This document shows, in pieces, positions 1 to 23,753 of a DNA stretch of 64,000 bases. Source of the DNA: Vampirovibrionales bacterium (GTDB lineage Bacteria > Cyanobacteriota > Vampirovibrionia > Vampirovibrionales > JAJTHC01). The notes beneath the pieces were generated by a model. The model did not search any database, was not told the origin of the DNA, and saw nothing but the letters and a program-made list of their open reading frames with translations. The DNA lies in contig JBJTUH010000088.1 in the NCBI GenBank assembly GCA_046080605.1, forward strand, positions 10,028-74,027. Direction: 5' to 3'. The position numbers were made by a program, and so were the translations under genes. The first letter of the stretch is position 1, and every line of letters begins with the position of its first letter.

Positions 1-494
1 GAGCTTGGTGGTTGTGCTTTGCTTCAGGGTTTTTAAGCATGAAACTAAGTAACGCCTCTAAGGTAACACGTATCACACGTTTGGATACAGAGCTGTGCCA
101 CCAAAAGCTAAAAAACAAAGGAAGTATGCAGTTTATTCTAAGTTACTATTATCTTTCAAAAACACGATGAGGGCAAGTGAGAAAGCACTGTGATGGTAAC
201 TTTAAAAAAGGCTTATTCTTAACGTATAAAACAATACTTTATTTTGGCGTGTGAATTAAAAGTATTCATAGATGAAAAGGGTAAAGTTCTCGGCTAAATG
301 GTCGAACTCTTAAAGGATGTCCTTCCTTTGTTTCATTGGCTCGTGGTATGAGACGATGTAGTCAAGAGTGTTCATGTCGCATGATACCCAATCATTCGAT
401 AAGCGTTTGAATGGAGCGATGCCTAATGAGTATGCATGAATTCTAGGGCATCTTGTCGTCACACTACCCCCTCTAGGATGGAGGCTTGAATCTC

Positions 495-2249
495 ATGATG
501 ATGGTTAGCGGATTAGGCAGTTTTGATTATCAAAGCTATGTCTCTCAAGTTATTGAGAATCAACGTGCTACACGTTCCTCATTGTACACCACCAGTAATA
601 CAAGGATAGGACGGCAAACAACCCAAATCAATACGCTTTCCACACGTGCAAATACCTTGCTTACCAGTGTTAAAAAGTTTTTTCCTTCTGTACTAGACAC
701 CAGTAATGTTTACAGTAGCTATAGTGCTTCGCAGACATTAACAGGGGGTGTCACAAACGCTGTGGCTAGTGATTATTTAACCGTAACGACTGATACCAAT
801 GCGACCACTCAAAACCTGAGTATCAAAGTAAATCGCCTTGCAACGAATACTCGTGCAACCAGTACCACAGATGTAGGACAAACCCTTCAAACGTCAACCC
901 TTGTAAGTGACTTAGGTATTAGCACAGGCAATTTTACGGTGTTTAGAAATGGGGTCGCCAATACTATTGCCGTTAATACTGGGGATACGATTCAAGATGT
1001 TTTGACACGCATTCAGGGGATTGCTGGTGTGAGCAGTACGGGGGTAAGTGGTGGGAAACTGAACATTGCGTTTGACAATACACAAACCATGCAGTTAGGG
1101 AGTACGGGTGATACCAGTAATTTTTTAAGTAAGACACAGCTTTTAACGGCAGTAAGTACCTCAGGGACTCCTGATAATACCTTAACCAGTGGTAGTACGG
1201 TAAGCTTACTGAACCTGAACGGCGATATGACTAATGCGACGGGGGCAAAGCTACAGACTACTGTGACCGCTGGGAGTACTTTTAAAATAGGGAGTGCTAC
1301 TTTTACGGTCAATGCTGGCGATAGTTTAAATAGTATTATCAGTCAAATTAATGGTTCAACCGCCGATGGTGTGACTGCGTCATTCAATACCAGTACTAAC
1401 CGTCTTGAGTTGACTAGCACCACGACAGGACAAAATGCTATTTTTCTTGAAGATACTTCGGGCAATTTTCTTCAAGCCATGGGGCTTCTCAGTGGGGGCA
1501 ATAGTTTAGCATCACAAACTTTAGGACAGAATGCCAGTGTTGAAATTAATGGTCAAACCTATTTAAGCACTTCTAATACGGTGAACTCAAGTACCACAGG
1601 TTTAACAGGGGTTACGTTAAACCTCAAGCAAGTCACTACAACGGGTGCGACCATTAATAGTGTGATAGCCCCAGATAGTACGAATCTTAAAAATGCCTTT
1701 AAGGACTTGGTCACTCGATTTAATGAGTATGTGAGTGCCAGTGATTTACAAACAGGCAAAGATGGTGTATTAAATGATATTTCAGGGTTCCGACGTTTGC
1801 GGAATAGTTTACGCAGTCAAATTGCAGACCGTAATGGGAGTGCCACTGTTTATAACAGTTTAACCCAAATTGGTTTAGGGACAGGTGCTGCTACTGGTGC
1901 GGCTGTGACAGGTGGTACGGTATTGCCCTTACAGTTTAACGAGTCTACGTTTGATGCTGCCTACAGTGCAAACCCAACTGAGGTGACCAATACCATTAAG
2001 GCAATCATGGGAACGTTACGAGACACACTTCAAAATGCTGTAGCCCCTACCTCGGGTACACAAAAAGGATTGTTTCAGGGTGCGAATGATAGTTTGGGTA
2101 CCCGTAAGAAAAATAATGATGATAAACTAAAGCGTATTACGGATCAATTAGAAAAAGAGAGAAGTAATATGCTCCGCCGCTTTGAGGCAATGCAAAAAGC
2201 GATTCAGCAGGTACAATCTCAGTCAGGGCAACTGTCTTCCGTTAGGTAG
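495..2249 (+). CDS. fliD: Flagellar hook-associated protein 2 / filament cap FliD
   Basis: N-terminus ...MMMVSGLGSFDYQSYVSQVIENQRATRSSLYTTSNTRIGRQTT... and a coiled-coil C-terminus (ITDQLEKERSNMLRRFEAMQKAIQQVQ) match the FliD pattern. The middle is Thr/Ser/Asn/Gly-rich. The track starts at a TTG at 486, only 1 nt after the GGAGG at 480-484; the ATG at 495 has better spacing. Confidence 0.65.
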   Translation: MMMVSGLGSFDYQSYVSQVIENQRATRSSLYTTSNTRIGRQTTQINTLSTRANTLLTSVKKFFPSVLDTSNVYSSYSASQTLTGGVTNAVASDYLTVTTDTNATTQNLSIKVNRLATNTRATSTTDVGQTLQTSTLVSDLGISTGNFTVFRNGVANTIAVNTGDTIQDVLTRIQGIAGVSSTGVSGGKLNIAFDNTQTMQLGSTGDTSNFLSKTQLLTAVSTSGTPDNTLTSGSTVSLLNLNGDMTNATGAKLQTTVTAGSTFKIGSATFTVNAGDSLNSIISQINGSTADGVTASFNTSTNRLELTSTTTGQNAIFLEDTSGNFLQAMGLLSGGNSLASQTLGQNASVEINGQTYLSTSNTVNSSTTGLTGVTLNLKQVTTTGATINSVIAPDSTNLKNAFKDLVTRFNEYVSASDLQTGKDGVLNDISGFRRLRNSLRSQIADRNGSATVYNSLTQIGLGTGAATGAAVTGGTVLPLQFNESTFDAAYSANPTEVTNTIKAIMGTLRDTLQNAVAPTSGTQKGLFQGANDSLGTRKKNNDDKLKRITDQLEKERSNMLRRFEAMQKAIQQVQSQSGQLSSVR

Positions 2250-2379
2250 GTTCATCTTAAGGCGTGGACTTTGCTATTTCATGCACTGTGTGGCATGATG
2301 GTGCCGTGGGTTTAGTACTCCTCATGACTTACGTCACGTAGTGTGTTAAAAAGTGTAACGCTCAGGGTATGTCTGCATC

Positions 2380-2691
2380 ATGAGATTAGATAAGTTTTTA
2401 AAGTGTGTGCGTGTGATTAAGCGTCGCACCGTTGCGAATGAGTTATGTGACCTTGGGCTTGTAAGCCTGAATGGTAAAGTAGCTCGTGCCTCTGCTGAAG
2501 TGCGTGTGGGTGATATCATTGAAGGACGTATTGTAAACCGTCGCTTCAAGCTTCAAGTTATTGAGGTGCCTAAGCATGAGCTACCCTCTGCCAAAATCCC
2601 TCTTTATGTTCAGGTAGAAACCTACTATCAGGCTACGCTTGAGGGTTCTTCTGTCAGCCCAGAAGCCTTGCTGGAGGATGGTGAACGGTAA
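2380..2691 (+). CDS. S4-domain RNA-binding protein (Hsp15/YlmH-like)
   Basis: MRLDKFLKCVRVIKRRTVANELCDLGLVSLNGKVARASAEVRVGDII fits the S4 RNA-binding fold pattern (RLDKxL ... VNG ... GD). Confidence 0.55.
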   Translation: MRLDKFLKCVRVIKRRTVANELCDLGLVSLNGKVARASAEVRVGDIIEGRIVNRRFKLQVIEVPKHELPSAKIPLYVQVETYYQATLEGSSVSPEALLEDGER

Positions 2692-2806
2692 ACAAGGTTT
2701 ATGTCATTGCAAGATATTGCAATTTTTTCTTGAGTATTTCATACTATACAATACAGTGATTTAGCTTGTTGTCGTAACACTAAATGCACTTCCACTTTAT
2801 GAAAGT

Positions 2807-2883
2807 GGCGGGTATCGCCAAGTGGTTAAGGCCTCGGGTTGTGGTTCCGATATACGCGGGTTCGAATCCCGTTACCCGCCCCA
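2807..2883 (+). tRNA. tRNA-His: tRNA-His (anticodon GTG), with encoded G-1 and CCA
   Basis: The cloverleaf was read directly. Acceptor stem GCGGGTA pairs with TACCCGC. D-arm is GCC...GGC. Anticodon stem TCGGG/TCCGA carries loop TTGTGGT, giving anticodon GTG. T-arm is GCGGG-TTCGAAT-CCCGT. Discriminator is C, followed by CCA. An extra 5' G at 2807 is typical of tRNA-His. Confidence 0.9.
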
Positions 2884-2888
2884 TTTTA

Positions 2889-2930
2889 AAACCTCTCTCC
2901 TTATACCTTGGATGAGAGGTTTTTTATTGT
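2889..2930 (+). terminator. Rho-independent terminator downstream of tRNA-His
   Basis: Hairpin ACCTCTC...GAGAGGT is followed by TTTTTATTGTTTGTTTT. Confidence 0.5.
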
Positions 2931-2990
2931 TTGTTTTCGTGAGCCAGTACGGTTGTATCAGTCAACGTTAAATCATCAAGGGTATTTATC

Positions 2991-3911
2991 ATGGCTTCTC
3001 ATTCTTCTCCTGCTCATTCTGTTGCTCATGTAATGCCTGAAGGAACACGTATTCCTGTTGTGATTTTAGGAGCGTGCGGTCGTATGGGGCGGGAAGCGGT
3101 CAAAACAATGCTTCTCCATGAGGAGAGGTTTCATTTGGTAGGTCTTTTTGACCGAAATAAAAAGGGAGCCTGTGCGGGAGAAGTGGCTGGCATGCCCGAT
3201 CATCCTAGTCCTGTGACGGTACAGTATGACTTGGCTGAGGTCTTGCAGTGGGCAAAAGAGCAGTCTAAACTCCCTCGGCAGTCTTTTGTGGTAGTAGATT
3301 TAACCGTAGGCTCTAGTACCCGTGAGCATATTACGACCGTGGCTCAAGCAGGTGGATTACCTGTGATTGGTGCAACTGGTTTCACCCCTGAGGATATTGC
3401 CTCGATGGATACACTTTTGAAAACCTATGGGTTAGAGGGTGCCTTGATTCCAAACTTCTCCATAGGGGCGGTACTGTTAATGCAGTTTGCCCAAAAGGCG
3501 AGTACCTATTTTAGCCATAGTGAGTTAATTGAATACCATCACAACCAAAAGCTTGATGCTCCTAGTGGTACCGCAGTACGTACTGCGACCTTAATGGAGG
3601 AAGCACGCCAGACGTTTGCTGTGACCAATATTACAGACCATGAAACCATGGCAGGTGCGAGAGGCTGTGAAACGCAAGGAAAATTACGCATTCATAGTGT
3701 CCGCTTACCAGGGTTAGTGGCACATCAAGAGGTTCTTTTTGGTGCTCAAGGTGAGCTTTTAACCCTGCGTCATGATAGTTTTGACCGAGCGTGCTTTATG
3801 CCAGGTGTCAGACAGGTTGCCCAAAGCCTTGCCGCCCATCTTTATGCTTCTGCCTCAAGCTATCAGTTACAGTATGCAGGTTTAACCATTGGGCTTGAGC
3901 ATTACCTGTAA
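2991..3911 (+). CDS. dapB: 4-hydroxy-tetrahydrodipicolinate reductase
   Basis: N-terminal Rossmann motif IPVVILGACGRMGREAVK, DapB-like length (306 aa) and the C-terminal region match DapB. Confidence 0.75.
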   Translation: MASHSSPAHSVAHVMPEGTRIPVVILGACGRMGREAVKTMLLHEERFHLVGLFDRNKKGACAGEVAGMPDHPSPVTVQYDLAEVLQWAKEQSKLPRQSFVVVDLTVGSSTREHITTVAQAGGLPVIGATGFTPEDIASMDTLLKTYGLEGALIPNFSIGAVLLMQFAQKASTYFSHSELIEYHHNQKLDAPSGTAVRTATLMEEARQTFAVTNITDHETMAGARGCETQGKLRIHSVRLPGLVAHQEVLFGAQGELLTLRHDSFDRACFMPGVRQVAQSLAAHLYASASSYQLQYAGLTIGLEHYL

Positions 3912-3925
3912 TGAAGTAAAAGCAC

Positions 3926-3961
3926 AAAAAAAAACCTACATGTGAGAGACACTTGTAGGTT
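3926..3961 (-). terminator. Hairpin with a U-tract on the minus strand (possibly bidirectional)
   Basis: A9 run followed by AACCTACA...TGTAGGTT inverted repeat. Read on the minus strand this is a stem-loop followed by T9, i.e. a canonical intrinsic terminator for a leftward transcript. On the plus strand it lies 15 nt after the dapB stop with only a weak U-tract. Confidence 0.4.
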
Positions 3962-4869
3962 GGGGTTATTCAACAGTAAATCTTTATTTAACGAGGTGTA
4001 TCTGTCAAAACGCAGTACCCTGAAACATATGCTTGTGTGAAACTTCAAACAGAAGTTTTAGACACACTATGAAAGAAAATTTTTGAGCAGTACAGACAGA
4101 GAGAGGAAAGCACTTATATTTAAAGCTTAGGGTAAGTATAACACATAGGGTAGGAAATAACAATAGTCTAATAAACAATTATTTTTTTAAGTTTAGAATA
4201 TCGTGGATACTATTAGTTGTGGACAAGTTTAGAAAATGCACGAGAGAAAAACCCTTGTTCAGTACCATCATTGCGGTATCCTTTTGAGGCTGCTTCAGCA
4301 CTGCCAAAACGCAATGAGAAGGTGTCACCATGTGCATTGCGTGCAACTACGGCGTGTGTACTACGCTCAGGGAAAGGAACTGCCACCACACTGTGGGGAA
4401 AATAACGAGCTTGAGAAGAGGCTAAAGCAGGAGCTTGGCATTTGAAGGGAGAGGAAACCGACTGAATATTCATGGTGTGAGAAGCCTTTTAGTAAATAGT
4501 GGTGTAAGGTAGTGCGTGTGTTACAAGCGGTGATGTAGGAAAGAAAGTAACTTTATTATGTGTTTCTTTAACACTTTCTATAATGTATTCTATACACTAT
4601 ACCTAAGTGTGTCAATATACACAAAGGTATCTCTTTCAATATTTACTTTTTCTTTATATTGAGATATTTCTCTCATGAGGGCGAAACATGACCGTATTCA
4701 GAGGGTTTAGCTCATATGGCTATGGGAGGTTAGTCTGTTGGCACTTGAGTGTTTGATGAGGAAGGACGAACTTTCAAACGGAGTAGGGTGATGGTATGTG
4801 TGGAGCCATTGTGTGTATTAGGCTTCATGGTGTTATGTACTTTAATCTCTTGAAAGCTCTTTACATCTC

Positions 4870-5604
4870 ATGATGGTGCTTTACGCTCATAAACAAGTGC
4901 ATCATATGGGGGACGATTCTACGAATGTCTCTCGGACTTATACCATGCCATCTGCTTCTCGTTCAAGAGCGTATGTATGGCAAGCTTGGGGCTATGTAGG
5001 GTGGATACGCCAGCGTGTGGCACAGCTATTGGGCTGGATAGGATTAGGGTTATTGGGTGTGGGTGTGTTTACATTAGGTCATACAGCTTGGAGGATGATG
5101 GTAACATTTCCGCCTTTATCTTCTCAATCATCACTGACTCACCCCTATCCTCAAGCGAGTTCTGATGGTGTAACTGAGACATCGACACCTAGCTTCTGGG
5201 CATCTTGGGGGTCTCAGGCATGGGCTGCTAATCCTAAAAAGAAATCAAAAGAAGACATTGATAAACAACTTGACGATTACCATAAAACATTGAAAGTCCT
5301 TGAGCAACGTATTGCGGAGCATTCCTTTTTTACAGGAGAAGACCAATACCATTTAATGGAACTCATTCCTCTTCTGAAAGCACTCCCAGATGAGCTTGGC
5401 ACTGATGAACCCAGAGTCCCTTTATTGCTTTATCGACTGGTGCAGGTGTTAAAGGCACGTGATGAGGCTTTGGAAGCGTGGGAGTGTCTTGAAGTCCTTG
5501 CGACAAAATATCCCAAGTCCTCTATGCTCAAGCGATACCAGTATGAGCAAAAGAAGCTTGAATCTCAAATGAAAGACCCTCTTGTGCCATCAAGTTTAAG
5601 GTAG
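4870..5604 (+). CDS. Hypothetical membrane-anchored protein with a helical (TPR-like) C-terminal region
   Basis: Single predicted TM segment (LLGWIGLGLLGVGVFTLGHTAW) and an alpha-helical C-terminus. No recognisable catalytic motif. The start is uncertain. Confidence 0.35.
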   Translation: MMVLYAHKQVHHMGDDSTNVSRTYTMPSASRSRAYVWQAWGYVGWIRQRVAQLLGWIGLGLLGVGVFTLGHTAWRMMVTFPPLSSQSSLTHPYPQASSDGVTETSTPSFWASWGSQAWAANPKKKSKEDIDKQLDDYHKTLKVLEQRIAEHSFFTGEDQYHLMELIPLLKALPDELGTDEPRVPLLLYRLVQVLKARDEALEAWECLEVLATKYPKSSMLKRYQYEQKKLESQMKDPLVPSSLR

Positions 5605-5632
5605 CGACTTGGAACAAATTAGAAATAAAATA

Positions 5633-5705
5633 TGCCACCAGCCGGAATCGAACCAGCGACACGGGGATTTTCAGTCCCCTGCTCTACCGACTGAGCTATG
5701 GTGGC
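5633..5705 (-). tRNA. tRNA-Phe: tRNA-Phe (anticodon GAA)
   Basis: Minus-strand reading: GCCACCA-TA-GCTCAGTCGGTAGAGC-A-GGGGA-CTGAAAA-TCCCC-GTGTC-GCTGG-TTCGATT-CCGGC-TGGTGGC-A. Anticodon is GAA. CCA is not encoded. Confidence 0.9.
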
Positions 5706-6176
5706 ATATTTGTTTTTTGATAAGTTACTTCAGTGAACGCATTGTATCAATCAGGCTTTTTAGTATGAAGCATTTTTGATTTAATGAACTTTGTAACACC
5801 TTTTATTAACTCAAGAATATACCCCCGTGTCAATGTTTCTCTTAAAACTCTTTATATCTTTCACAGGTATGAAGTATCTTTGCCAAGACGCTCGTGTATC
5901 TAGGCTAAAAGTTTGTTAATCCTACTTGCAAACTTTAGGAAAGGTCGTACACACTATGAGTAGTAAGTATGCGTATGGCGGTTTAAAACGCTACGCATGC
6001 CTTCATAAACAACGTTACCATCAATCAGAGGCTATGAGGTACGTTGTTTGCATAGGATATTCTGAAACCTGTTTGGTCAGTTTGATATTGTACGAAGTCA
6101 CTCTTCTTGTGTGTGGTATGTACTTGTTCGTTGTTGGCATCCATCAAGCTTTTTGCTTGCGTTTGGTTGACCGTTT

Positions 6177-8972
6177 ATGAAAGAAGAAGGTAATGCGATG
6201 ATTTACACTGCTTATAATACCTATAATCCTTATGTGGTAGACCCTGCCCATGACGTATTTCGGTATGAACCACGAAGCTTGGATGCTATTTTCTCTCCTA
6301 AATCAGTGGCAGTGATTGGTGCGACCGAAAAACACGGGAGTGTTGGAAGAACCATTTTATGGAATTTGATTACGAGTAATTTCAATGGGGTGGTTTTTCC
6401 TGTAAACCCCACTCGTAAGAGTGTGCTAGGCATTGCGGCGTATCCTAGCATTCAAGATGTACCAGAAAAAGTAGACCTTGCCGTGATTGTGACCCCTGCC
6501 CCTAAAGTGCCAGGCGTGATTCGTGAATGTGCTGCACAAGGGATTCCAGGTGCTATTATTATTTCTGCAGGCTTTAAGGAAGTAGGTCCTGAAGGGGTTG
6601 CGCTTGAGCAAGAAATTTTAGACATTGCACAACGCTCAGGCATGCGTATTGTAGGTCCCAACTGTTTGGGTGTCATGAATGCACGCAAAGGCTTGAATGC
6701 GACCTTTGCGAAGGGAATGGCCCGCCCTGGCGATGTTGCGTTTATTAGTCAGAGTGGGGCTTTGTGTACGGCGGTGCTTGACTGGAGCTATCAAGCCAAT
6801 GTGGGCTTCAGTATGTTTGTGAGCGTCGGTTCGATGTTAGATGTTGATTGGGGCGATCTGATTTATTACTTAGGAGATGACCCTAACACCAAGAGCATTG
6901 TCTTGTATATGGAAACCATCGGGGATGCACGTTCGTTTCTTTCTGCCGCACGGGAAGTGGCTCGGATTAAACCCATTGTGGTTATTAAACCTGGTAGGAC
7001 AGAAGGTGCTGCGAAAGCGGCAGCAAGCCATACGGGGTCATTGACAGGGAGCGATGACGTTCTGGATGCCGCCTTCAAGCGTTGTGGTGTATTACGTGTG
7101 GATAGTATTGAAGAAGTGTTTGCGATGGCGGATGTGTTAGACAAACAGCCTTTACCCAAAGGACCCCGTTTAACCATTGTCACAAACGCTGGTGGACCTG
7201 CCGTGCTTGCCACGGATGCGTTATTAACTTCAGGCGGACAGCTGACTGAAATTTCTGAAGAAGCGATTGCCTCTTTGAATGAAACCCTCCCCAGTGCCTG
7301 GAGCCATAGTAACCCCATTGATGTGTTAGGGGATGCGGATGCTTCACGCTATGCACGCTCATTGGAAATTGCAGCTCAAGACGAAAACAGTGATGGCATG
7401 TTAGTCATTTTAACCCCTCAAGCCATGACGGAGTCCACGGAAACAGCACAACTCCTTGCACAATACGCTAAGAAGTATGATAAACCTATTCTTGCCAGCT
7501 GGATGGGCGGGCAAGATGTGGCGGTAGGATCTCAATTACTGAATCAAGCGGGGATTCCTGTATTTGCTTACCCCGATGCGGCAGCACGAGCCTTTTCCAG
7601 AATGTGGCAATACGCCGACCATTTGGGAGGACTCTATGAAACCCCTCAGCTCTCTTCAGTCTCAGATGAAGCAGCACGCCACAAGCAAGAGGTGTGTGAG
7701 GGACTCTTACAAAGCGTTTTGGCAGAGGGACGTACCCTTTTAACCGAATGGGAGTCTAAGAAGCTCCTTGCCCATTATGGTATTCCTACCGTACTCACGG
7801 AGCTTGCCTTGAGCCGAGAAAAAGCCCTAGAAGCGGCCAATGCCATGGGGTATCCTGTGGTTCTCAAGCTCCATTCTGAGACTATTACCCATAAAACCGA
7901 TGTGGGTGGCGTGAAGCTCAACCTGCAAACCCCTGACCATGTACTTGAAGCCTATGACACCATTGTAAAAAATGTGACGGAAAAAGTAGGCTTTGAACAT
8001 TTCCAAGGGGTCACGGTGCAACAAATGGTCAAGCTCTCCGAGGGCTATGAACTGATTTTAGGGGCAAGCCAAGACCCTCAGTTTGGGTCCGTGGTACTTT
8101 GTGGTACGGGTGGACAGCTGGTGGAGGTGTATCATGATAGCGTGTTGGAGTTGCCTCCTTTAAATAATAAGTTGGCTCGTCGGATGATGTCTAAGACACG
8201 CATTTTTAAAGCTTTACAGGGTGTACGTGGGCGTGACCCAGTAGACCTAAACGCTTTAGATGAACTTTTGGTACGGTTTAGTCAACTTGTGGTGGAACAG
8301 CCTCGAATTAAAGAAATTGATATTAACCCTTTAATGGCATCGCCTTCAGGGCTGATTGCACTTGATGCTAGGGTGGTATTATTTTCAGATGCAGCGTTTG
8401 ACGATGCAACCCCAGTTCAGGCGATTCGTCCTTACCCTAGCCAGTACACAACCGAGGGAAGTACAAAACGAGGAGAACCCTTGACCATACGTCCTATTAA
8501 GCCTGAAGATGAACCCTTGGCAAAACATTTTCATCTGAATCTTTCTGAACGGAGTGTGTACTTACGTTATATGCAGTCCATGCCCTTACAGGAGCGTCTA
8601 CAGCATGAACGGTTAAGTCGCTTGTGTTTTATTGACTATGACCGTGAGATTGCTTTAATTGCTCTTACGCCTGATGATGCCTTACCCCAAGGTGAGAAAA
8701 TGATTGGGGTAGGACGCTTGAGTAAGGAGCATGGTAGCGATGCAACGGGGACGTTCCGTATTCTTGTGTCTGACCCTTATCAAGGTCAGGGTGTGGGTGC
8801 CAGGCTGGTGAAGGAAGTGATTGCCGTGGCACGTGCTGAGGGCTTATCGTTACTGTGTGGACAGATTTTGAATGAAAATCGTGAAATGCAGGCGATTTGT
8901 GAAAAACTAGGGTTTACCTTGAAGCCTATGGCAAAATATGCCGACCGCTTGCTTGCAACGCTGACCCTTTAA
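6177..8972 (+). CDS. Pat/YfiQ-type protein lysine acetyltransferase (NDP-forming acyl-CoA synthetase-like domains plus C-terminal GNAT)
   Basis: 931 aa. CoA-binding region [21 protein letters not shown], succinyl-CoA-synthetase-like and ATP-grasp segments, and a C-terminal GNAT ([18 protein letters not shown]). An alternative start is at 6198 (MIYTAY...), preceded by AAGGT. Confidence 0.7.
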
Positions 8973-9000
8973 ACGCCTGACATAGAGCATCTTGTACCTT

Positions 9001-9035
9001 CACGCCCTCTTCTCGTTTATCGAGAAGGGGGCGTG
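9001..9035. terminator. 15-bp stem hairpin between convergent genes
   Basis: CACGCCCTCTTCTCG-tttat-CGAGAAGGGGGCGTG with one mismatch. No clear U-tract on either side. Confidence 0.3.
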
Positions 9036-9057
9036 GCTTAGAGGAGTCTTTGATTGT

Positions 9058-10536
9058 TTAACGTTTTACCTTATTCCGTATTGCCGCAATAAGTTGAAAT
9101 ACCAAGAAACCCTGAATGATAAGTTGGCATGTAACCGAGACACTCATTAGTGTTGGGTGACAAGACATAGCCTTTTTCCACGTCGTTTCAAGAGTCTTTT
9201 TTATGAAGTAATCAGTGGGTAACGATAGGTTTAGACTTGTCCACCAGTGTTTTAGCCAGATCGATTGGTTTGTATTGTTAACAAGACAAGGTGCATTTAA
9301 TGAGTGATAAATCCATGCAAATACTCTTGAATTAATGAATAACCATACAATAGGTAACCCTATTGATAATCCAAAATGAGAGGAGTATAAATACAGTCTT
9401 AGTAAAACACCTTCTGGGGAAATGCAGTTTGTAACACCCCGAAGCCTGAACCAACTTTCCCAAAAGTAGAAGCTATGAGCAAGTTGTACTTCTCCTCTCT
9501 CTTGAGCCTTTGCTTTTAACTGGCTGTAGGTAATTCTTCCCTGCATTGCTTCTGTGGGCGAAGTATACTTTTCGTGAAGGCTAGGGGGTAAGCTTCCATG
9601 ATGAACCCACCATGTAAAAAAGTGATCAAAAAAGAAGAATAAGTTTATTATAATTTTATTAAGGAACTGAGTAGTTTTATTGCAATAAATAATTGTTTTA
9701 TTGGTAAAATGAGTAATTTTATTATATAAATCAATTATTTTGTTGAGAAACTGAGCAGGTTTATTATATAAATTAATTAATTCTGTTAAATATGTTTTTA
9801 TGTTTTCTATTGGAAATTGACGGGTTGTACTGTCTGGGAAAATACACTGGTCAAAGATAAACCCTGTTAAGCCATTTCCTCCTTCAATAGAAACATGTCC
9901 TAAGTCCCATTGAATAAGATAAATAGTTGAGGGGGGTAAGTAGCATTTTCTAAATGTGAGTGGCACACAATCAGTATTGGAGGAAGTGTTTTTTTGGCTT
10001 TCTATCGTATCTCCCTCTTGATCGTATTGTTTAAAGAATAAGGTACCAGAAGAGGCATAATTGATATTTTGAATCTCAGCTTTACCACCGTCATGATAGC
10101 TGACTTCAAAAACGCCTCCTGACTCAAAATGAGTATTATCTATTATGAAGTTACCAAAAACTTTTGTTTTCTCAACTTTAGCACTTTTTAAACATCGAGA
10201 GCTAAAAATAGCAAATCTCTTATGAAACTCACAATTTTCTATATTTAAGGTGTTTTCAAACGTGCAGTTTGAAAATGTAAAACCTTCTTGAAATATTACA
10301 CTTTTAATTTTAACAGGTTTTTCAAATACACAGTTTTGAAACTCGATTGTAAAGTTCAAGTCTCGCATGTTCTGGATGCGGAGTTCAAAATGGCAAGTGC
10401 CTTTAAAGACAAGTGGTATATTTCCCGGGTTCTCAAGCCATTCTGTAAGCTTAGTGTCGAGTTCTTCTTGAGATGTAATCTCGTCAAGTGAAAATTCATC
10501 TGCTGTAGGTATTTGGGTGGGTATCTGGTCTATCAT
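9058..10536 (-). CDS. Pentapeptide-repeat-like N-terminal domain fused to a multi-TM C-terminal domain; AT-rich gene
   Basis: N-terminal tandem A(N/D)LxF-type repeats (FQNCVFEKPV, FSNCTFENTL, IENCEFHKRF). A central 14-aa repeat region (LNKIIDLYNK...). C-terminal hydrophobic segments (LSIGLPIVWLFINSRVFAWIYHSL, LIIQGFLVFQLIAAI). GC is far below the window average, about 25-35% over 9600-10400. Confidence 0.4.
   Translation of the reverse strand: MIDQIPTQIPTADEFSLDEITSQEELDTKLTEWLENPGNIPLVFKGTCHFELRIQNMRDLNFTIEFQNCVFEKPVKIKSVIFQEGFTFSNCTFENTLNIENCEFHKRFAIFSSRCLKSAKVEKTKVFGNFIIDNTHFESGGVFEVSYHDGGKAEIQNINYASSGTLFFKQYDQEGDTIESQKNTSSNTDCVPLTFRKCYLPPSTIYLIQWDLGHVSIEGGNGLTGFIFDQCIFPDSTTRQFPIENIKTYLTELINLYNKPAQFLNKIIDLYNKITHFTNKTIIYCNKTTQFLNKIIINLFFFFDHFFTWWVHHGSLPPSLHEKYTSPTEAMQGRITYSQLKAKAQERGEVQLAHSFYFWESWFRLRGVTNCISPEGVLLRLYLYSSHFGLSIGLPIVWLFINSRVFAWIYHSLNAPCLVNNTNQSIWLKHWWTSLNLSLPTDYFIKKTLETTWKKAMSCHPTLMSVSVTCQLIIQGFLVFQLIAAIRNKVKR
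9646..9803 (-). repeat. Degenerate ~42-nt tandem repeat (about 4 units) inside the 9058..10536 CDS
   Basis: Units begin ttattataat.../ttattgcaat.../ttattatataaatcaatt.../ttattatataaattaatt... They encode 14-aa repeats KPAQFLNKIIDLYN / KITHFTNKTIIYCN / KTTQFLNKIIINLF. Confidence 0.5.
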
Positions 10537-10828
10537 TTTTGTCTTTTAATCTATCTTGCGACCATCTATTGATGGTTTATCAATTACTTATGATGTTTAA
10601 TTAAAGATAAAACTTTATAAAATAATGGATGTTTATTCATTTTACTGAAAATGGTTTTGTATCTCAAGGTGACAGATAATAGGTCTCTTTTCAAGGTTCT
10701 CTTGTAAGAATAGGATGAACCTTAAAAAGCATTTTTTTCATGGGCTAGAGTAAAAAAAGCCATTCGTTCAGTGCCAATGCACCAGTACCTTTGGATGTTT
10801 TTCTCTCCTTTTTAGCCCTAAGGACCCC

Positions 10829-12790
10829 ATGCCCATGATATTTTCTTTCCACGAGCCTCATGAATCCTCTGAGATGTCTGATGACATTATGCACATGCCT
10901 CTAGGTGCATCAGAGGAAACCCGTGCTAACATGTTAGCCATTGCTCACGAAGAAGAAGCCAGTGTGATTGCTTGGTGCAATGCGTTTAAGCAAAAAGCAA
11001 CCACGTATGCACAGGCAAAAAAACAAAAACTAGAGGTTGCCTATCGACATTTACAAGGGGTGTTTGACGCACAAGATGCCCTTCCTGTGCCTTTTATGAC
11101 GCAGCCAGGGATTGCAGATGCCCGCACACAACAGCGTTTAGACAAACAACGTCCTAAAACGTTTTTTCCGTTGACAAAACAGGTGGTGCATCAGTTATAT
11201 GCCCAGCTAAAACTCACGTTTTTCCCCAACGATGAAGATTACTTCCGAGTCAGAGGACGTGACCCTGAAGCAGCACTACTGGAAGATGATTTGACAGATG
11301 CACTCAAGCAGGTGTTCAAGGAAAACTTATTAACCGAACAACTAGGGGCTTTTCTGTTTGATTTATGTTGGGCAGGCATGGGGTTTGCCATTCCTGCCAT
11401 GGAAACCATCACCCAAAGTGAATGGTACTGGGATGAGGTTCAAGCCACTTATCAGTACCGCCCTGTGTTACAACAACGTATGACCTTGCATACCCTGCAT
11501 CCTATGAGCTTTTTCATTGACCCTCAAGCCTCTCTTGGACGATGGCATGAAAGTGCATGGTGTCATGTGGGAAAAAAGAAAATCAGATCCATCTTGGAAG
11601 AAGGATGTTCACAGCGTCACGTCCAACGGTTTCAAGCTCTTTTATATGGTACACATACCCTTGAGGACACCTTACGCTTTTCTGGCCTTACCCATGGGTA
11701 TCAGTTACATACTCATTTACCTTCCCCTGGAGAGACGGGGTCTTTTCCTGAGGAGTCTTCCCATGCCATGACGGGTGGAGCGTCTGGCAGTTTGCATGAA
11801 AAAGCCCTGACCTATGAAACGTTTTACTTTCCGTATTTAGAACTGCGTCATGACACAACCCAAGCCGTGAGGGTGTTACGTCATGTGAGTGTTCATGTGG
11901 TAGAGCATCAGTGGGTCGTGGGCGTGTATCCTAATACGTCCCCTCGTGCGGAAAATCCTGCGGTGTTTTGTCATTGGCATTTAACCCCAGAAGGACCCTA
12001 TGGTGAAGGTCCTGCAGAGGCTATCACTGAGTTACAACGCCTCGTAAATATCCTTGAAAATTACAAATTAGAAGCAATGGCACGTATTGGTAACCGTTTT
12101 GTGGTGCCTGAAGGGACTGACTTAAGTCAGTTTTTTGGTGTGGCAGGCGGTATTATGGTGACGGAGCGTCCGAATGATGTACAATCGTTCCATGGCGATT
12201 TCTCAGAAATTGCTACACTGATGAATCAAATAGGGATGCTCAAAGCCGAGGCTCAAATCACTTCAGGGGCGAATCATGCCTTCCAAGGTGCCAGTCAAAT
12301 TGACTTCAAAAAAACGGCGACTGAAATGCAAATCCTTCAGGAGCAAACCATTAATGATTTGCGTGAAGTGATTGAACATATCGGTATTATGGGAATTAAG
12401 CCTTTATTAGAGCGGTTTATGGTGTTAGTGGCACACCATGCGACTGAACCGATGTTGATTCGACAAGATAGCCCTACGGAAGGTACGGTCTTTAAATCGT
12501 TAGACTTACGAGTACTATTGTCGGGACGCTTTCATATTGAGGTGGTGAGTATTAATGTAGGACAAAGTAAGCAAAAGCAGTTGGAGTGGTTGACACAGCT
12601 GTTAACGCTTACCCAGAAAAATCCTGTATGGTCTCAGCAACTCAAGCAGGGTGGGTACCCTATTTTGAAAAAAATGGCAATGATTGCAGGTATGAAAGAT
12701 GTAGATGCTTTTCTCACCCCTCCTGTTGCTTCGTTTGAGGGAGGAGCGTCGGGGGATACTGCACCTTCTATGACGGTGCCTCCTATGTAG
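10829..12790 (+). CDS. Hypothetical protein resembling T7-like podovirus head-to-tail connector (portal) protein
   Basis: 653 aa intact ORF with normal GC. From my memory of T7 gp8, segments run in parallel. LYAQLKLTFFP matches LASKLMLALFP. DLCWAGMGF matches LVVAGNVLL. YGEGPAEAITELQRLVNILEN matches YGRSYIEEYLGDLRSLENLQE. GIMVTERPNDVQSF matches GDFVTGRPEDISF. No capsid or terminase neighbours are present. Confidence 0.45.
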   Translation: MPMIFSFHEPHESSEMSDDIMHMPLGASEETRANMLAIAHEEEASVIAWCNAFKQKATTYAQAKKQKLEVAYRHLQGVFDAQDALPVPFMTQPGIADARTQQRLDKQRPKTFFPLTKQVVHQLYAQLKLTFFPNDEDYFRVRGRDPEAALLEDDLTDALKQVFKENLLTEQLGAFLFDLCWAGMGFAIPAMETITQSEWYWDEVQATYQYRPVLQQRMTLHTLHPMSFFIDPQASLGRWHESAWCHVGKKKIRSILEEGCSQRHVQRFQALLYGTHTLEDTLRFSGLTHGYQLHTHLPSPGETGSFPEESSHAMTGGASGSLHEKALTYETFYFPYLELRHDTTQAVRVLRHVSVHVVEHQWVVGVYPNTSPRAENPAVFCHWHLTPEGPYGEGPAEAITELQRLVNILENYKLEAMARIGNRFVVPEGTDLSQFFGVAGGIMVTERPNDVQSFHGDFSEIATLMNQIGMLKAEAQITSGANHAFQGASQIDFKKTATEMQILQEQTINDLREVIEHIGIMGIKPLLERFMVLVAHHATEPMLIRQDSPTEGTVFKSLDLRVLLSGRFHIEVVSINVGQSKQKQLEWLTQLLTLTQKNPVWSQQLKQGGYPILKKMAMIAGMKDVDAFLTPPVASFEGGASGDTAPSMTVPPM

Positions 12791-13213: not shown

Positions 13214-14458
13214 TCAGGGTAATAAAAACGGTTGGATGGCAGAAATTGCCTTTTCTTGGAGTTGCCTTGTGTATACCGCACTATCAGTGTGTGAAGGTAC
13301 AAGCTGAAGCATCTTTTTAGCCATGCTTCCCATGCCTGCACCATGAACCTCTAAACGTGCTTGTTGTACTGGATGGCGATAAAATACGGCACTTTCAGGA
13401 CTAATCCCCCCTGAGAGTGTCAGCCAAGTCCAAGGAGGGTTGAAGGAAGGAGAAAGGGTGTGATAACGTGCATGCATACGATAGGCAACATGCCAAGCGT
13501 ATGCATGAGGAGAGGTCTGAGAGGGCATTGTATTAGACGTTTGGATGCCTTGTTGTTGTAACTGGTAGCCCGCCCCACCCATGGCAATGCCATCCACTTG
13601 AGCCATCCATACTTTATGGGTATTGATGGTTTTAACCCATGTGTCAAATGTTGCCAGAAAAGTCTGCTCTTGTGCTTTACACGCTAAAGAGGCTTCCTCT
13701 GTGACAGGTCGCCAACATAACGAGAGGAGCTTGTCCTTTAATCCATCTTCGAGTGAGGTGAGCAGCTGTAAGAGTGCTTCTTGGTTGAGGTGTTCTGTAT
13801 GAAGTTCTACCATCGTAATGGCAGGGTGACGTAAGAGGGTTTGGAGTGTTTCAGAGGCTTGCGTGATAGGGTGTAATGAGAGTGCTTCTGTTGGACAAAC
13901 GGGAATACATTGGTTACAGCCGTAACATCGGGTATGAACCATGTCAAGAGGATGACTTGGCGTGGGCGTATCAGGCAGTGCAAAAACTTGGGTGGGGCAT
14001 ACGGGGATGCAGGCACTACACTGAATACAGGCTTCTGTCTGGAGTTCAATGGTTTTAAAGTGAGGGTCGCCGTCAACATCAAGGCTTACCATGAGGGCGG
14101 GAAAAATAGGTGTAGGGCCTGGGTGGTCTAGGGCTAAACGTTTGAAACTTTCTAAGACCGTCTCAAGCACGGAGGGGTCTGCTGCAAGGTCAAAAACTTG
14201 AACGCCACTGAGGGCGTACGCCGTACATAGTTTTTCAATGAGTTCGGTATCTTTAAAACTTGCCCCTAAAATAAGCTTAATATACCTGTGGTGCCTCAAG
14301 GCTTCTATCACTTCGGGTAGGCGATAATGGGTGATAACAGGCATAGGACGAACGCTTACAGGATGGTTTCTTCTATAGATGGTGAGTGCTACACTAGGAA
14401 AGCTTTTGGTATCAATGGTGTGTCGTAACGGCACTCTCTGCGAGCAAAGAAAGCACAC
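13214..14458 (-). CDS. LdpA-like iron-sulfur protein (Ycf23-like N-terminal region plus two 4Fe-4S ferredoxin motifs)
   Basis: Two CxxCxxCxxxCP motifs (CIQCSACIPVCP, CYGCNQCIPVCP). N-terminal KLILGASFKD...VFDLAADP region resembles Ycf23/LdpA. The likely true start is the ATG at 14344 (MPVITHYRL...). Confidence 0.4.
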   Translation of the reverse strand: MCFLCSQRVPLRHTIDTKSFPSVALTIYRRNHPVSVRPMPVITHYRLPEVIEALRHHRYIKLILGASFKDTELIEKLCTAYALSGVQVFDLAADPSVLETVLESFKRLALDHPGPTPIFPALMVSLDVDGDPHFKTIELQTEACIQCSACIPVCPTQVFALPDTPTPSHPLDMVHTRCYGCNQCIPVCPTEALSLHPITQASETLQTLLRHPAITMVELHTEHLNQEALLQLLTSLEDGLKDKLLSLCWRPVTEEASLACKAQEQTFLATFDTWVKTINTHKVWMAQVDGIAMGGAGYQLQQQGIQTSNTMPSQTSPHAYAWHVAYRMHARYHTLSPSFNPPWTWLTLSGGISPESAVFYRHPVQQARLEVHGAGMGSMAKKMLQLVPSHTDSAVYTRQLQEKAISAIQPFLLP

Positions 14459-17419: not shown

Positions 17420-17754
17420 GATGAGGAGAGGGTCGCTTTACAGTCAACAATCTTGAGAGTACAAACAGGTAAACAATAGAGGGTGATGAAGTAAGTGGCA
17501 TAAAAATGTTCTATGTATCCATAGTGTTATTATGGAAGTACCTCACGCAAGAATCAAGTACAAACCTTGAAGAAAAGCGTTTGCCCCCAGTCTTTTCCCA
17601 TGGGGATGGGGAGGAGCGGTCTCGTATGTTATACGGATGTTTTAACGCCTATCCCTATGCTATGGTAACAGCATGACGAAGCCTTAGAGCAAGCATCTTT
17701 GGGGTGTGGTATGTCATAAAAGCATGTTGAAATCATAGAAAGAGCTGAAACGAT

Positions 17755-18270
17755 ATGATGACGGCGATTGAAATGCGTGTAATAGGAATTGCACTTGATA
17801 CTCGTACAGGAACCCCTATTGTCGTCCTTAATGATACTGAAAATCGGCGAGCATTGCCTATCTGGATCGGTACCGCAGAGGCAAGTGCAATTATTCGTCA
17901 GTTGGAGCAGATTCATTCCTCTCGTCCTATGACCCACGACTTGCTGTGCAATATGGTAGAAACCTTGGGCTATAAGGTGCTTAGAGTTGAAATTAATGAC
18001 CTTAATACAGATACGTACTATGCCTCTGTGGTGGTGAAACATCAAGAGCTTGAGGTAGAGTTTTTGGTGGATGCCCGCCCTTCTGATGCCATTGCGATTG
18101 CACTCCGTGCCGAGGTGCCTATTTTTGTGACACCTAATGTGATTGCGAATGGGACGATTTCCACGAATGTGGAGCGAGATGAGGAAGAAGCACGCCAGTT
18201 TCAAGAGTTTGTCTCGAACTTGAAAGCCTCTGATTTTATTCGAGAACCCTTTGATAAAGACCTGCACTAA
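17755..18270 (+). CDS. Bifunctional nuclease (BFN/DUF151) family protein
   Basis: Signature VDARPSDAIAIALRAEVPIFV, plus the N-terminal PIVVLND...ALPIWIG pattern typical of OmBBD-like BFN domains. Confidence 0.6.
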   Translation: MMTAIEMRVIGIALDTRTGTPIVVLNDTENRRALPIWIGTAEASAIIRQLEQIHSSRPMTHDLLCNMVETLGYKVLRVEINDLNTDTYYASVVVKHQELEVEFLVDARPSDAIAIALRAEVPIFVTPNVIANGTISTNVERDEEEARQFQEFVSNLKASDFIREPFDKDLH

Positions 18271-23102: not shown

Positions 23103-23753
23103 ATGCTTAAAGACCTGTTAAAAATTGGATTAACGTTGGGGATTATTTGTAGTTGTTTGTATACCCCTAGTGTGGTGTCTCAATTCTCTCAAGAGGTGGT
23201 TTCAGGTGTAAAGCACCAAGTGACACATGTGGCACAGGCTCAACATACCCCCCTTTTGAAGGAAGCTTTGGGTCTGATTGCGTCTCGGTTACCTGATGCC
23301 CATGCTCATAAACCCCCACATCAGGGAGGGCAAGATGTCCTTGACTTAAGTCACCCTGAAATTCAAGTACAGCTTGACCCCTCCAGTAAAGCGTTGGCGG
23401 TGGATGCGATTATGAATGACCAAGTGGCAGGGCGTTTTATTGTGGATACAGGTGCAACCTACACGGCAATTACGAGTGATACTGCTGATGCGTTAGGGGT
23501 TGATACGAGCCATGCCCAACGTATTCCCATTATGACGGCGAGTGGGAGAATTTTTGTGCCTAAGGTCACGCTTGCTGTTTTGCGTCTTGGAAGTTTAGTG
23601 GCTCATGATGTTGAGGTGACCGTGCTTCCCGTGAGGCAAACGCCACAGTTTTCTGGCTTGTTAGGACTCAATTTTACAAATCGGTATATCATGACCGTTG
23701 ACCCCACTCAATCACGCTTGATTTTTAAACCTCGTCAAGATGTCACTGAATAA
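23103..23753 (+). CDS. Retropepsin-like (clan AA) aspartic protease, membrane-anchored
   Basis: RFIVDTGATYTAITSDTADALGV is a D-T/S-G-A active-site pattern in the TIGR02281-like context. N-terminal TM segment. Confidence 0.5.
   Translation: MLKDLLKIGLTLGIICSCLYTPSVVSQFSQEVVSGVKHQVTHVAQAQHTPLLKEALGLIASRLPDAHAHKPPHQGGQDVLDLSHPEIQVQLDPSSKALAVDAIMNDQVAGRFIVDTGATYTAITSDTADALGVDTSHAQRIPIMTASGRIFVPKVTLAVLRLGSLVAHDVEVTVLPVRQTPQFSGLLGLNFTNRYIMTVDPTQSRLIFKPRQDVTE

Follow-up and report, generated by a model that had tools for sequence, protein, structure and literature searches.

A divergent, AT-rich member of an uncharacterised pentapeptide-repeat membrane protein family in a Vampirovibrionales genome

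Gene and genomic context

We identified a complete gene on the minus strand of the window (the whole stretch of 64,000 nucleotides that was analysed), with exactly the boundaries given in a preliminary description of the sequence (Table 1). The product is identical to an NCBI protein listed as 'MAG: hypothetical protein ACKO37_04655 [Vampirovibrionales bacterium]'. The gene is intact and encodes a membrane-anchored repeat protein of a Vampirovibrionales MAG, for now to be regarded as accessory and uncharacterised. Its neighbours are a convergent Pat-like gene and a divergently transcribed portal-like gene.

Table 1. Positions of the gene, its flanking features and the predicted parts of its product in the window.
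Feature	Position	Strand	Description
Synteny breakpoint vs closest available genome (L002)	8970..8975		Alignment up to Pat stop codon, divergence directly after
GC-rich hairpin between convergent Pat and gene stops	9001..9035		15-bp stem, one mismatch, 5-nt loop
Complete CDS	9058..10536	-	492 aa; ATG start at 10536, TAA stop 9058-9060
Conserved C-terminal module	9061..9549	-	Residues 330-492; alignments A2 and A3
Predicted TM helix 2	9076..9156	-	Residues 461-487, then invariant basic tail RNKVKR
Predicted TM helix region 1	9295..9417	-	Residues 374-414, hydrophobic core ~376-408
Helical stalk linking beta-helix to membrane helices	9436..9810	-	Residues 243-367; AF2 model
Tandem repeat	9653..9779	-	42 bp x 3 = 3 x 14 aa (xLYNKxxxFxNKxI); residues ~255-296; TRF
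Right-handed beta-helix, PF13576-type repeats	9847..10413	-	Residues 42-230; predicted cytoplasmic
N-terminal strand and alpha-helix capping the beta-helix	10432..10500	-	Residues 13-35; AF2 model and sequence
Divergent intergenic region, gene to portal-like gene	10537..10828		292 bp, AT-rich, ~34% GC
Sigma-70-like site	10667..10639	-	Consensus match only; such matches no more frequent than in shuffles

The hairpin between the convergent stop codons (dG -28.5 kcal/mol, z -3.9) has no U-tract and is possibly a terminator. An Rfam scan of the gene flanks returned no match. As previously described, a tRNA-Phe gene (5632-5706) lies 3.35 kb from the gene, with the Pat-like gene between them. Integrase, transposase or other mobility genes were not identified among the neighbours, and a search for flanking repeats and insertion scars found only short repeats at chance level. 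PHROGs gave no match. The neighbouring genes show no defence-island context and PADLOC returned nothing, and known defence systems were set aside as candidates.

In the closest available genome, the gene and the portal gene are both missing after Pat, and the entire downstream region is different. Thus, it is not demonstrated that one gene was cleanly inserted between Pat and portal: comparison with this one related genome bears out the absence of the gene after Pat, but the portal gene is missing as well and there is no clean empty site. Location in a variable region, where synteny breaks, is consistent with gain and loss of an accessory gene.

Adjacency to an orphan portal-like gene raises the question of whether the two function together, for example with a host-encoded ring protein that regulates or triggers a membrane effector. 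The genes are divergent and share the AT-rich spacer, and the closest genome lacks both of them after Pat. Defence proteins of the pore-type or ring-activated kind, Rip1 and RAZR, are known to be triggered by portal rings (review PMC13434031). Such a pairing is very improbable, however, given that a portal neighbour occurs in none of the nine homolog loci and that the portal gene has normal GC, with no sign of co-transfer.

Protein architecture

The structure was predicted with AF2 using an alignment of 41 sequences (pLDDT 82.7, pTM 0.79; TM helices pLDDT 92-95). This model replaced an earlier one from a 4-sequence alignment (pLDDT 57.8), for which fold matches were uninformative. We predict with confidence a layout consisting, from the N- to the C-terminus, of a cytoplasmic right-handed beta-helix of the PF13576 type, a helical stalk, a C-terminal module with two TM helices (2-TM), and a basic cytoplasmic tail, AIRNKVKR. 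The N-terminal cap is acidic and, as read from the sequence, lacks a signal peptide. The repeats of the beta-helix have a period of 11 residues (5+6). Model confidence is low in the first half of the stalk. The stalk also contains the tandem repeat, which is the lowest-GC part of the gene and corresponds to an alignment gap in the three closest homologs.

The C-terminal module comprises, in order, an amphipathic helix (Y..LK..A...G..QLA..F.FW), TM1, an LSLPTDYF loop, TM2 and the basic tail. Hydropathy indicates two strong TM segments (residues ~376-408 and 461-487), and TM region 1 contains a motif, S-x-x-G-L-S...P, that is nearly invariant in the family alignment. The AF2 model and hydropathy bear out the earlier outline, with repeats first and a membrane domain after them. 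To call the C-terminus 'multi-TM channel-like' was an overstatement, because there are only two strongly hydrophobic helices and no match there to Ion_trans or any other Pfam model.

Fusions of pentapeptide repeats to channels of the Ion_trans_2 type exist, and Foldseek lists pore domains of TRPV, Nav and TRPML for the target (E 0.8-5, probability <=0.11). Nevertheless, it is extremely improbable that the gene encodes a fusion of a pentapeptide domain with a potassium channel of the Ion_trans_2 type, since only two TM helices are predicted and a GYG-type filter motif is absent from the sequence. The HMM search for Ion_trans and Ion_trans_2 that had been suggested found neither, in the target or in the C-terminal modules of 22 relatives, even at E<=10. 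The target and these 22 modules had no match to any channel family in Pfam, so that Ion_trans_2 and other channel families were rejected as candidates. A match of the C-terminal profile to TMC-1 (E 0.008) was treated as noise due to hydrophobic composition.

Family membership and distribution

Close homologs are few: only four were found among 5.8 billion proteins, and word-index protein searches with alignments recovered the same four proteins and no others. An exhaustive profile (HMM) search, on the other hand, yielded 6879 matches at E<=1e-3, including 825 at E<=1e-10. Among the best 150 of these, about 50 reach the C-terminal end of the profile, with the same layout and the AIRNKVKR ending. 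The architecture is thus not the unusual one that it had been taken for.

We place the protein with confidence, as a divergent member, in a large and so far uncharacterised family that combines pentapeptide repeats with two TM helices. The family is unnamed and is defined in this analysis, by alignments A2 and A3, as the PF13576 + 2-TM 'AIRNKVKR' family. The sequence elements that characterise it (Y..LK..A...G..Q; S..G.S...P; the Q..F....AIRNKVKR end) are found in the target, as are all of the nearly invariant residues of the 41-sequence alignment. With a local HMM built from alignment A3, the window ORF, itself part of the model, reaches 170.9 bits and independent relatives 103-179 bits.

The repeat type and beta-helix fold are those of PF13576 (Pentapeptide_3) proteins, that is, a right-handed beta-helix of ~5-residue repeats. 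PF13576 is matched by 34 of the 41 aligned relatives at E<=1e-3 (best 2e-36). The target itself scores 23.4 bits (E 6.9e-5, residues 66-107), below the gathering threshold of 27 bits. The family-defining 2-TM module lies outside PF13576, and no model covers it: neither Pfam nor NCBIfam gave a match. At present, then, this is a family with a membrane module that lacks a domain model, and with no assigned function; its members carry the source names 'pentapeptide repeat-containing protein' or 'YjbI-like'.

All of the named relatives belong to Vampirovibrionia, the class of the host, and a paralog is present in the same MAG. A tblastn search of plasmids and phages with the target gave no match; with a central family member, the matches were to unrelated pentapeptide proteins and were confined to their repeat domains. 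No relatives were identified in IMG/VR. Two metagenome scans for further loci produced nothing and one 1.7-kb fragment, respectively, and the neighbourhood analysis was therefore limited to nine loci obtained by exact look-ups. At all nine, the gene is solitary, lies among housekeeping genes and is not in a syntenic position.

Base composition and horizontal transfer

The gene has the lowest GC content of the 40 long ORFs in the window (0.348, vs a mean of 0.463 +/- 0.026) and also the lowest GC3 (0.308, vs 0.416 +/- 0.038; z -2.8). GC falls to 0.29-0.39 in 400-bp windows across it, and the low-GC tract coincides with the gene and the spacer upstream of it. In tetranucleotide content, the 1.5-kb tiles at 9001-11000 deviate more than any others in the window. 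The GC dip noted in the preliminary description is real and involves a single gene, but the background is 45-48% rather than about 50%, and the gene averages 35% rather than 25-35%.

FYMINK residues constitute 0.348 of the protein, vs 0.205 in the other ORFs. Given its own amino acids and window-average synonymous usage, the gene would be expected to have a GC of 0.381; amino-acid composition thus accounts for ~8 of the 11.5 GC points (~70% of the deficit). The synonymous-site residual of -0.032 (z -2.4) is the most negative of the 40 genes. By Karlin codon bias B (z +0.5), the gene does not stand out. Windowed GC and codon-usage calculations, proposed earlier as a check, therefore give a divided answer: GC, GC3 and tetranucleotides deviate, but codon bias is ordinary and most of the deficit comes from the amino acids.

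At eight of the nine loci of relatives, the gene is also lower in GC than its flanks (0.35-0.44, in hosts of 0.45-0.61). As the dip recurs in relatives from other genomes, we regard it as a property of the family, and low GC is consequently weak evidence of recent transfer. We conclude that the low GC derives mainly from the F/I/N/K-rich composition of the family, together with a modest synonymous shift towards AT.

Horizontal acquisition, as proposed in the preliminary description, would involve insertion of a single gene from an AT-rich donor, long enough ago for mobility signatures to have been lost. We consider this unlikely. The extremes of GC, GC3 and tetranucleotide content, the negative synonymous residual, the coincidence of the low-GC tract with the gene and its spacer, and the absence of the gene after Pat in the closest genome, where the breakpoint falls at the Pat stop codon, are consistent with it. 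So is the presence of a family member of matching GC in Caenarcaniphilales, a lineage that belongs to the same class and is AT-rich (flank GC 0.35). However, most of the deficit is a matter of amino-acid composition, codon bias is ordinary, and relatives have the same dip at eight other loci. Furthermore, there is neither an integrase nor a convincing direct repeat, a native gene separates the nearest tRNA, the whole downstream region rather than this gene alone differs in the related genome, and the MAG contains a paralog. Recent transfer from an AT-rich donor is not demonstrated. For annotation, the lesson is that a sharp dip in GC over a single gene can reflect the amino-acid make-up of a family, and is not by itself a mark of recent transfer.

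Comparison with HalA and possible function

HalA, the effector of the Hailong anti-phage defence (PDB 9nyi; NCBIfam NF051894), is a DNA-gated ion channel built as a homotetramer, with a crown in the cytoplasm, and is gated by bound oligodeoxyadenylate (review PMC13434031). It is the only solved structure of similar layout. In a Foldseek search of the PDB, HalA (9nyi_A) was the top match to the target (489 columns, E 1.4e-3) and the sole match with probability 1.00. It was also the best PDB sequence-profile match to the family (E 2e-4), with similarity confined to the repeats. Both proteins have, in the same order, a cytoplasmic pentapeptide-type beta-helix, a helical region, TM helices at the C-terminus and a short basic tail. 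However, HalA has three hydrophobic segments and the target two, and the target exceeds HalA by 120 aa, both its beta-helix and its stalk being longer. In Hailong, HalA is partnered by HalB, a Pol-beta-type nucleotidyltransferase encoded in the same two-gene operon, whereas the target stands alone.

Despite these best full-length structural and sequence-profile matches, there is hardly any chance that the gene is a bona fide Hailong HalA effector with its HalB nucleotidyltransferase elsewhere in the genome. The target does not match the NF051894 HalA model (cut-off 250 bits) even at E<=10, and relatives reach only 27-36 bits against that cut-off, at model positions 23-120, in the repeat region. 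The C-terminal profile has no match to HalA, and the TM modules are without significant similarity. No HalB-type nucleotidyltransferase is adjacent to the gene here or at any of the nine homolog loci, while in a genuine halA-halB pair on a Sulfitobacter plasmid (L093) the two genes overlap. On HMM score, missing partner and TM-domain comparison, HalA membership was rejected.

The best explanation as a whole, which we advance tentatively and at rather less than an even chance, is that the gene product is an inner-membrane protein under selective maintenance, namely a beta-helix-gated 2-TM channel or pore, encoded by an accessory gene with a GC content set by family composition. The C-terminal module would oligomerise to form the channel or pore, the state of which would be controlled by a ligand bound to the cytoplasmic beta-helix. 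The logic would be that of HalA as a DNA-gated channel, here in a stand-alone unit that dispenses with a HalB-type partner. We infer channel function from architecture alone.

The two TM helices could also be no more than a membrane attachment for a beta-helix scaffold. Under one such alternative, which we find doubtful, the protein is a membrane-tethered DNA mimic or scaffold without channel activity, in which a Qnr/MfpA-like beta-helix sequesters a DNA-binding enzyme or other partner and the TM helices are an anchor. Qnr, MfpA and McbG-like DNA mimics are soluble dimers of ~200 aa with A(D/N)LXX repeats, unlike the target, which is membrane-anchored, with F-rich repeats of PF13576 type and an 11-residue period. 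Moreover, conservation within the family is highest in the C-terminal membrane module rather than in the beta-helix. Nearly invariant polar residues (Q471, R487, N488, K489) occur in or beside the TM helices, and the loop between these helices has a conserved motif. The passive-anchor reading is weakened because this conservation of the membrane module exceeds what such an anchor needs.

As to a gated channel like HalA, counterpoints are the missing defence-island context, the lack of a PADLOC match, and the absence of relatives from the plasmids, phages and IMG/VR searched. In its broadest and still less probable form, the gated-channel reading would make the PF13576 + 2-TM 'AIRNKVKR' proteins an extensive class of HalA-like gated membrane channels that act alone and have so far gone unrecognised. 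These would be single-gene sensor-effectors in which detection of a ligand, either a nucleic acid or a protein, by the cytoplasmic beta-helix opens a 2-TM pore of a new type. The class would have expanded particularly in the predatory or parasitic Vampirovibrionia, with the window gene as a divergent member bearing a stalk extended by tandem repeats. If the HalA-like reading is true, the Hailong channel effector would represent a single specialised offshoot within a far larger family of beta-helix-gated membrane proteins.

Base composition of the gene

The interval of the AT-rich repeat-protein gene in the preliminary description corresponds exactly to one ORF with an ATG start, encoding 492 amino acids (coordinates of all features are tabulated). 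The sole alternative frame, an overlapping plus-strand ORF of 67 amino acids, is without support. The gene has the lowest GC content (about 34.8%) and GC3 (30.8%) among the 40 non-overlapping long ORFs of the window (mean GC 46.3 +/- 2.6%, GC3 41.6 +/- 3.8%), and values across it fall to 28.7-39.5% in 400-bp windows. The dip is real, but smaller than claimed; the window averages 45.4% GC. The low-GC tract extends from the stop codon of the gene up to position 10829, where the next gene begins, and so comprises the gene and its 292-bp upstream spacer. Tetranucleotide content (1.5-kb tiles) is the most deviant in the window at 9001-11000.

Features of the window, the encoded protein and an apparent plasmid Hailong pair
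Feature	Position	Strand	Basis or remark
tRNA-Phe	5632-5706		
Hairpin	9001-9035		dG -28.5 kcal/mol, z -3.9
AT-rich repeat-protein gene	9058-10536	-	
Tandem repeat, 42 bp x 3	9653-9779		in the stalk
Portal-like gene	10829-12790	+	653 aa, GC 0.46
LdpA-like Fe-S protein gene	13214-14458	-	
Codon-usage outlier ORF	17629-18267	-	212 aa
Aspartyl protease-like gene	23103-23753	+	216 aa
Short strand and helix	residues 13-35		AlphaFold2
Beta-helix	residues 42-230		AlphaFold2
Pentapeptide_3 (PF13576)	residues 66-107		Pfam
Helical stalk	residues 243-367		AlphaFold2
Weak hydrophobic segment	residues 291-309		hydropathy
Membrane region	residues 374-487		AlphaFold2
TM helices	residues 374-414 and 461-487		AlphaFold2, pLDDT 92-95
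Two amphipathic helices	between the TM helices		AlphaFold2
Strong hydrophobic segments	residues ~376-408 and 459-488		hydropathy
HalA homolog and NTase genes	2776-3891 and 3834-4577		plasmid CP144550.1

When the protein was recoded according to the synonymous codon usage of the 39 remaining ORFs, the expected GC was 38.1% (z -4.2 relative to the other genes), compared with 34.9% observed. Thus, amino acid composition accounts for about 8 points of the 11.5-point GC deficit: FYMINK residues make up 34.8% of the protein (vs 20.5% elsewhere) and GARP residues 14.4% (vs 25.0%). Synonymous choice accounts for about 3 GC points. No other gene among the 40 has as negative a synonymous residual (z -2.4), and the Karlin codon-bias distance is not exceptional (0.34, z +0.5). 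In codon usage, the window's strongest outlier is a separate 212-aa ORF (Karlin B 0.613, GC3 0.531, GC1 0.423) with no match in a Pfam search, perhaps a foreign gene or a wrongly called frame.

GC content is below that of the flanks in eight of nine relatives from other genomes, by 9-17 GC points, with host GC ranging from 45 to 61%. The exception is L089, from an AT-rich Caenarcaniphilales genome, where gene and host agree. We therefore consider GC of about 35-44% to be a trait of the gene family, and one that says little about recent transfer into this genome.

GC content of relatives and their flanks at loci in other genomes
Locus	Gene GC	Flank GC	Remark
L001	0.431	0.532	
L082	0.439	0.593	
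L083	0.439	0.610	short contig, same protein as L082
L084	0.373	0.464	
L085	0.382	0.472	
L087	0.354	0.451	
L088	0.363	0.475	
L091	0.383	0.472	
L089	0.359	0.348	AT-rich Caenarcaniphilales genome

Protein architecture and family

The only Pfam match of the protein is to Pentapeptide_3, at 23.4 bits (under the 27-bit cut-off), and searches of NCBIfam, PADLOC and PHROGs returned nothing useful. A channel-like multi-TM domain had been suggested, with Ion_trans_2 among the models to be searched; this is not supported. There are just two strongly hydrophobic segments (the weak third lies within a non-conserved insert) and no Ion_trans-type match in Pfam even at E<=10. An AlphaFold2 model built on a 41-sequence alignment is confident (pLDDT 82.7, pTM 0.79), and resolves a beta-helix, a stalk and a membrane region. 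The repeats have a hydrophobic period of 11 residues (5+6). Given the absence of a signal peptide and the tail RNKVKR behind TM2, the simplest topology would place both termini in the cytoplasm. The tandem repeat encodes three 14-residue units in the lowest-GC part of the gene, where the closest homologs have a gap, and may be a recent lineage-specific expansion.

A word-indexed search of 5.8 billion proteins recovered four sequences only: the identical NCBI entry ('MAG: hypothetical protein ACKO37_04655 [Vampirovibrionales bacterium]'), a paralog from the same MAG (ACKO37_02540, 564 aa) and two metagenomic proteins. The paralog, encoded outside the window, diverges past TM1 and has neither TM2 nor the terminal AIRNKVKR; truncation, a frameshift or decay to a pseudogene may explain this. 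An exhaustive profile search gave 6879 matches at E<=1e-3 (825 at E<=1e-10 and 26 at E<=1e-30), with the alignment reaching the C-terminal end of the profile in about 50 of the best 150. In 41 aligned relatives, the C-terminal module, not the repeats, is the most conserved part (consensus YAxLKxxAxxxGDxQLANDFxFWQQ ... TSAYGLSxxLPLxW ... LQxLIQGYLLFQIGAAIRNKVKR), and its nearly invariant residues are common to our protein. Thus, the layout, previously described as unusual, recurs across a widespread family. PF13576 is matched by 34 of these relatives, and the C-terminal module alone matched no Pfam family. Relatives are named 'hypothetical protein', 'pentapeptide repeat-containing protein' or 'YjbI with pentapeptide repeats', and those with a named organism come from Vampirovibrio sp. 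(CP050876), Candidatus Caenarcaniphilales and Vampirovibrionales. The family is without a name and is well represented in the bacterial class of the host. The gene is a real and probably functional member of this large uncharacterized family.

Comparison with the Hailong effector HalA

In reviews of Tan et al. (2025), among them PMC13434031, HalA is described as a DNA-gated, homotetrameric ion channel bearing a cytoplasmic crown. According to these reviews, oligodeoxyadenylate, the product of the nucleotidyltransferase HalB, keeps it shut, and HalA causes depolarisation once phage exonucleases have destroyed this ligand. The HalA structure (9nyi_A) ranked first in a Foldseek search with our model (E 1.4e-3, 489 aligned columns, TM-scores 0.22/0.30), and was the only entry listed with probability 1.00. 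The family profile matched 9nyi at E 2e-4. The NCBIfam model 'anti-phage Hailong system effector protein HalA' was weakly matched by 5 of the 41 relatives. Relatives reach 27-36 bits (cut-off 250), in the repeat part only (model positions 23-120).

An apparently complete Hailong pair was identified in an unannotated record of a Sulfitobacter pontiacus plasmid, where the gene for a 371-aa HalA homolog (E 7e-67 to 9nyi) overlaps that for a 247-aa Pol-beta-type NTase (motif GSTARGD...DIDLL). Alignment of our family to this homolog with hhalign gave 68% probability over only 30 columns.

We do not assign the protein to HalA: the HalA NCBIfam model is unmatched, an NTase gene (the HalB type) is absent both nearby and in nine homolog loci, and the profile of the C-terminal module shows no significant similarity to 9nyi or to the plasmid HalA homolog. 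HalA has three hydrophobic segments, whereas our protein has two. By eye, both share an aromatic-G-x-S motif at the opening of a TM helix and a C-terminal ending of I-x-N-[KR]-[VL]-x-R, parallels that we take as a lead.

From the architecture, we tentatively favor, as the likeliest mechanism, a HalA-like oligomeric membrane channel or pore formed by the C-terminal two-TM module, the state of which would be controlled by the cytoplasmic beta-helix with no need for a HalB partner. As the chief alternative, the beta-helix would serve as a scaffold or DNA mimic tethered to the membrane. More speculatively, the family as a whole could be a new class of stand-alone gated channels.

Genomic context

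As first described, a tRNA-Phe gene occurs near the gene, and a Pat-type protein acetyltransferase (CoA-binding, ATP-grasp_5 and GNAT domains) is encoded between the two. Pat is convergent with our gene, and a GC-rich hairpin without a U-tract lies between both stop codons; it is not conserved in the closest GTDB genome, a Vampirovibrionales MAG from Lake Mendota (L002). That genome is collinear with 470-8962 of the window (Pat: 93% protein and 79% DNA identity), and the alignment breaks off no more than a few bases from the Pat stop codon. Beyond Pat, the next 10 kb of L002 match no part of the 64-kb window and include no family member. Thus, the gene is absent after Pat in this one genome, but a clean single-gene insertion was not seen, because the portal-like gene and everything beyond are also missing. 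A homolog from the metagenome of L002 (P0165; 46% identity over the C-terminal 196 residues) is at an unrelated locus. This fits a gene family in variable positions.

In all nine homolog loci the gene is solitary among housekeeping genes, with different neighbors each time, and searches of plasmids, phage genomes and IMG/VR contigs yielded no relatives. The original observation is largely borne out, and horizontal acquisition is only partly supported.

The divergent portal-like gene, of normal GC, matches SU10_portal (Pfam, E 4e-12) and PHROG 332 (head-tail adaptor, E 4e-26). It stands apart from any other phage structural gene, and neither a tblastn search of 50,697 phage genomes nor IMG/VR gave a match. 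Farther neighbors encode FliD, DapB, an LdpA-like Fe-S protein, a DUF5069 protein and a Wzy_C-domain protein; none of the neighbors are mobility or defence genes. The LdpA-like protein has an LdpA_Fe-S-bd domain and a weak LdpA_C match. LdpA serves circadian input in cyanobacteria; here, the host is a non-photosynthetic member of the Vampirovibrionales. Also identified, in a chromosomal context, was a protein with a retropepsin-like aspartyl protease domain (Asp_protease_2, E 2.5e-19).
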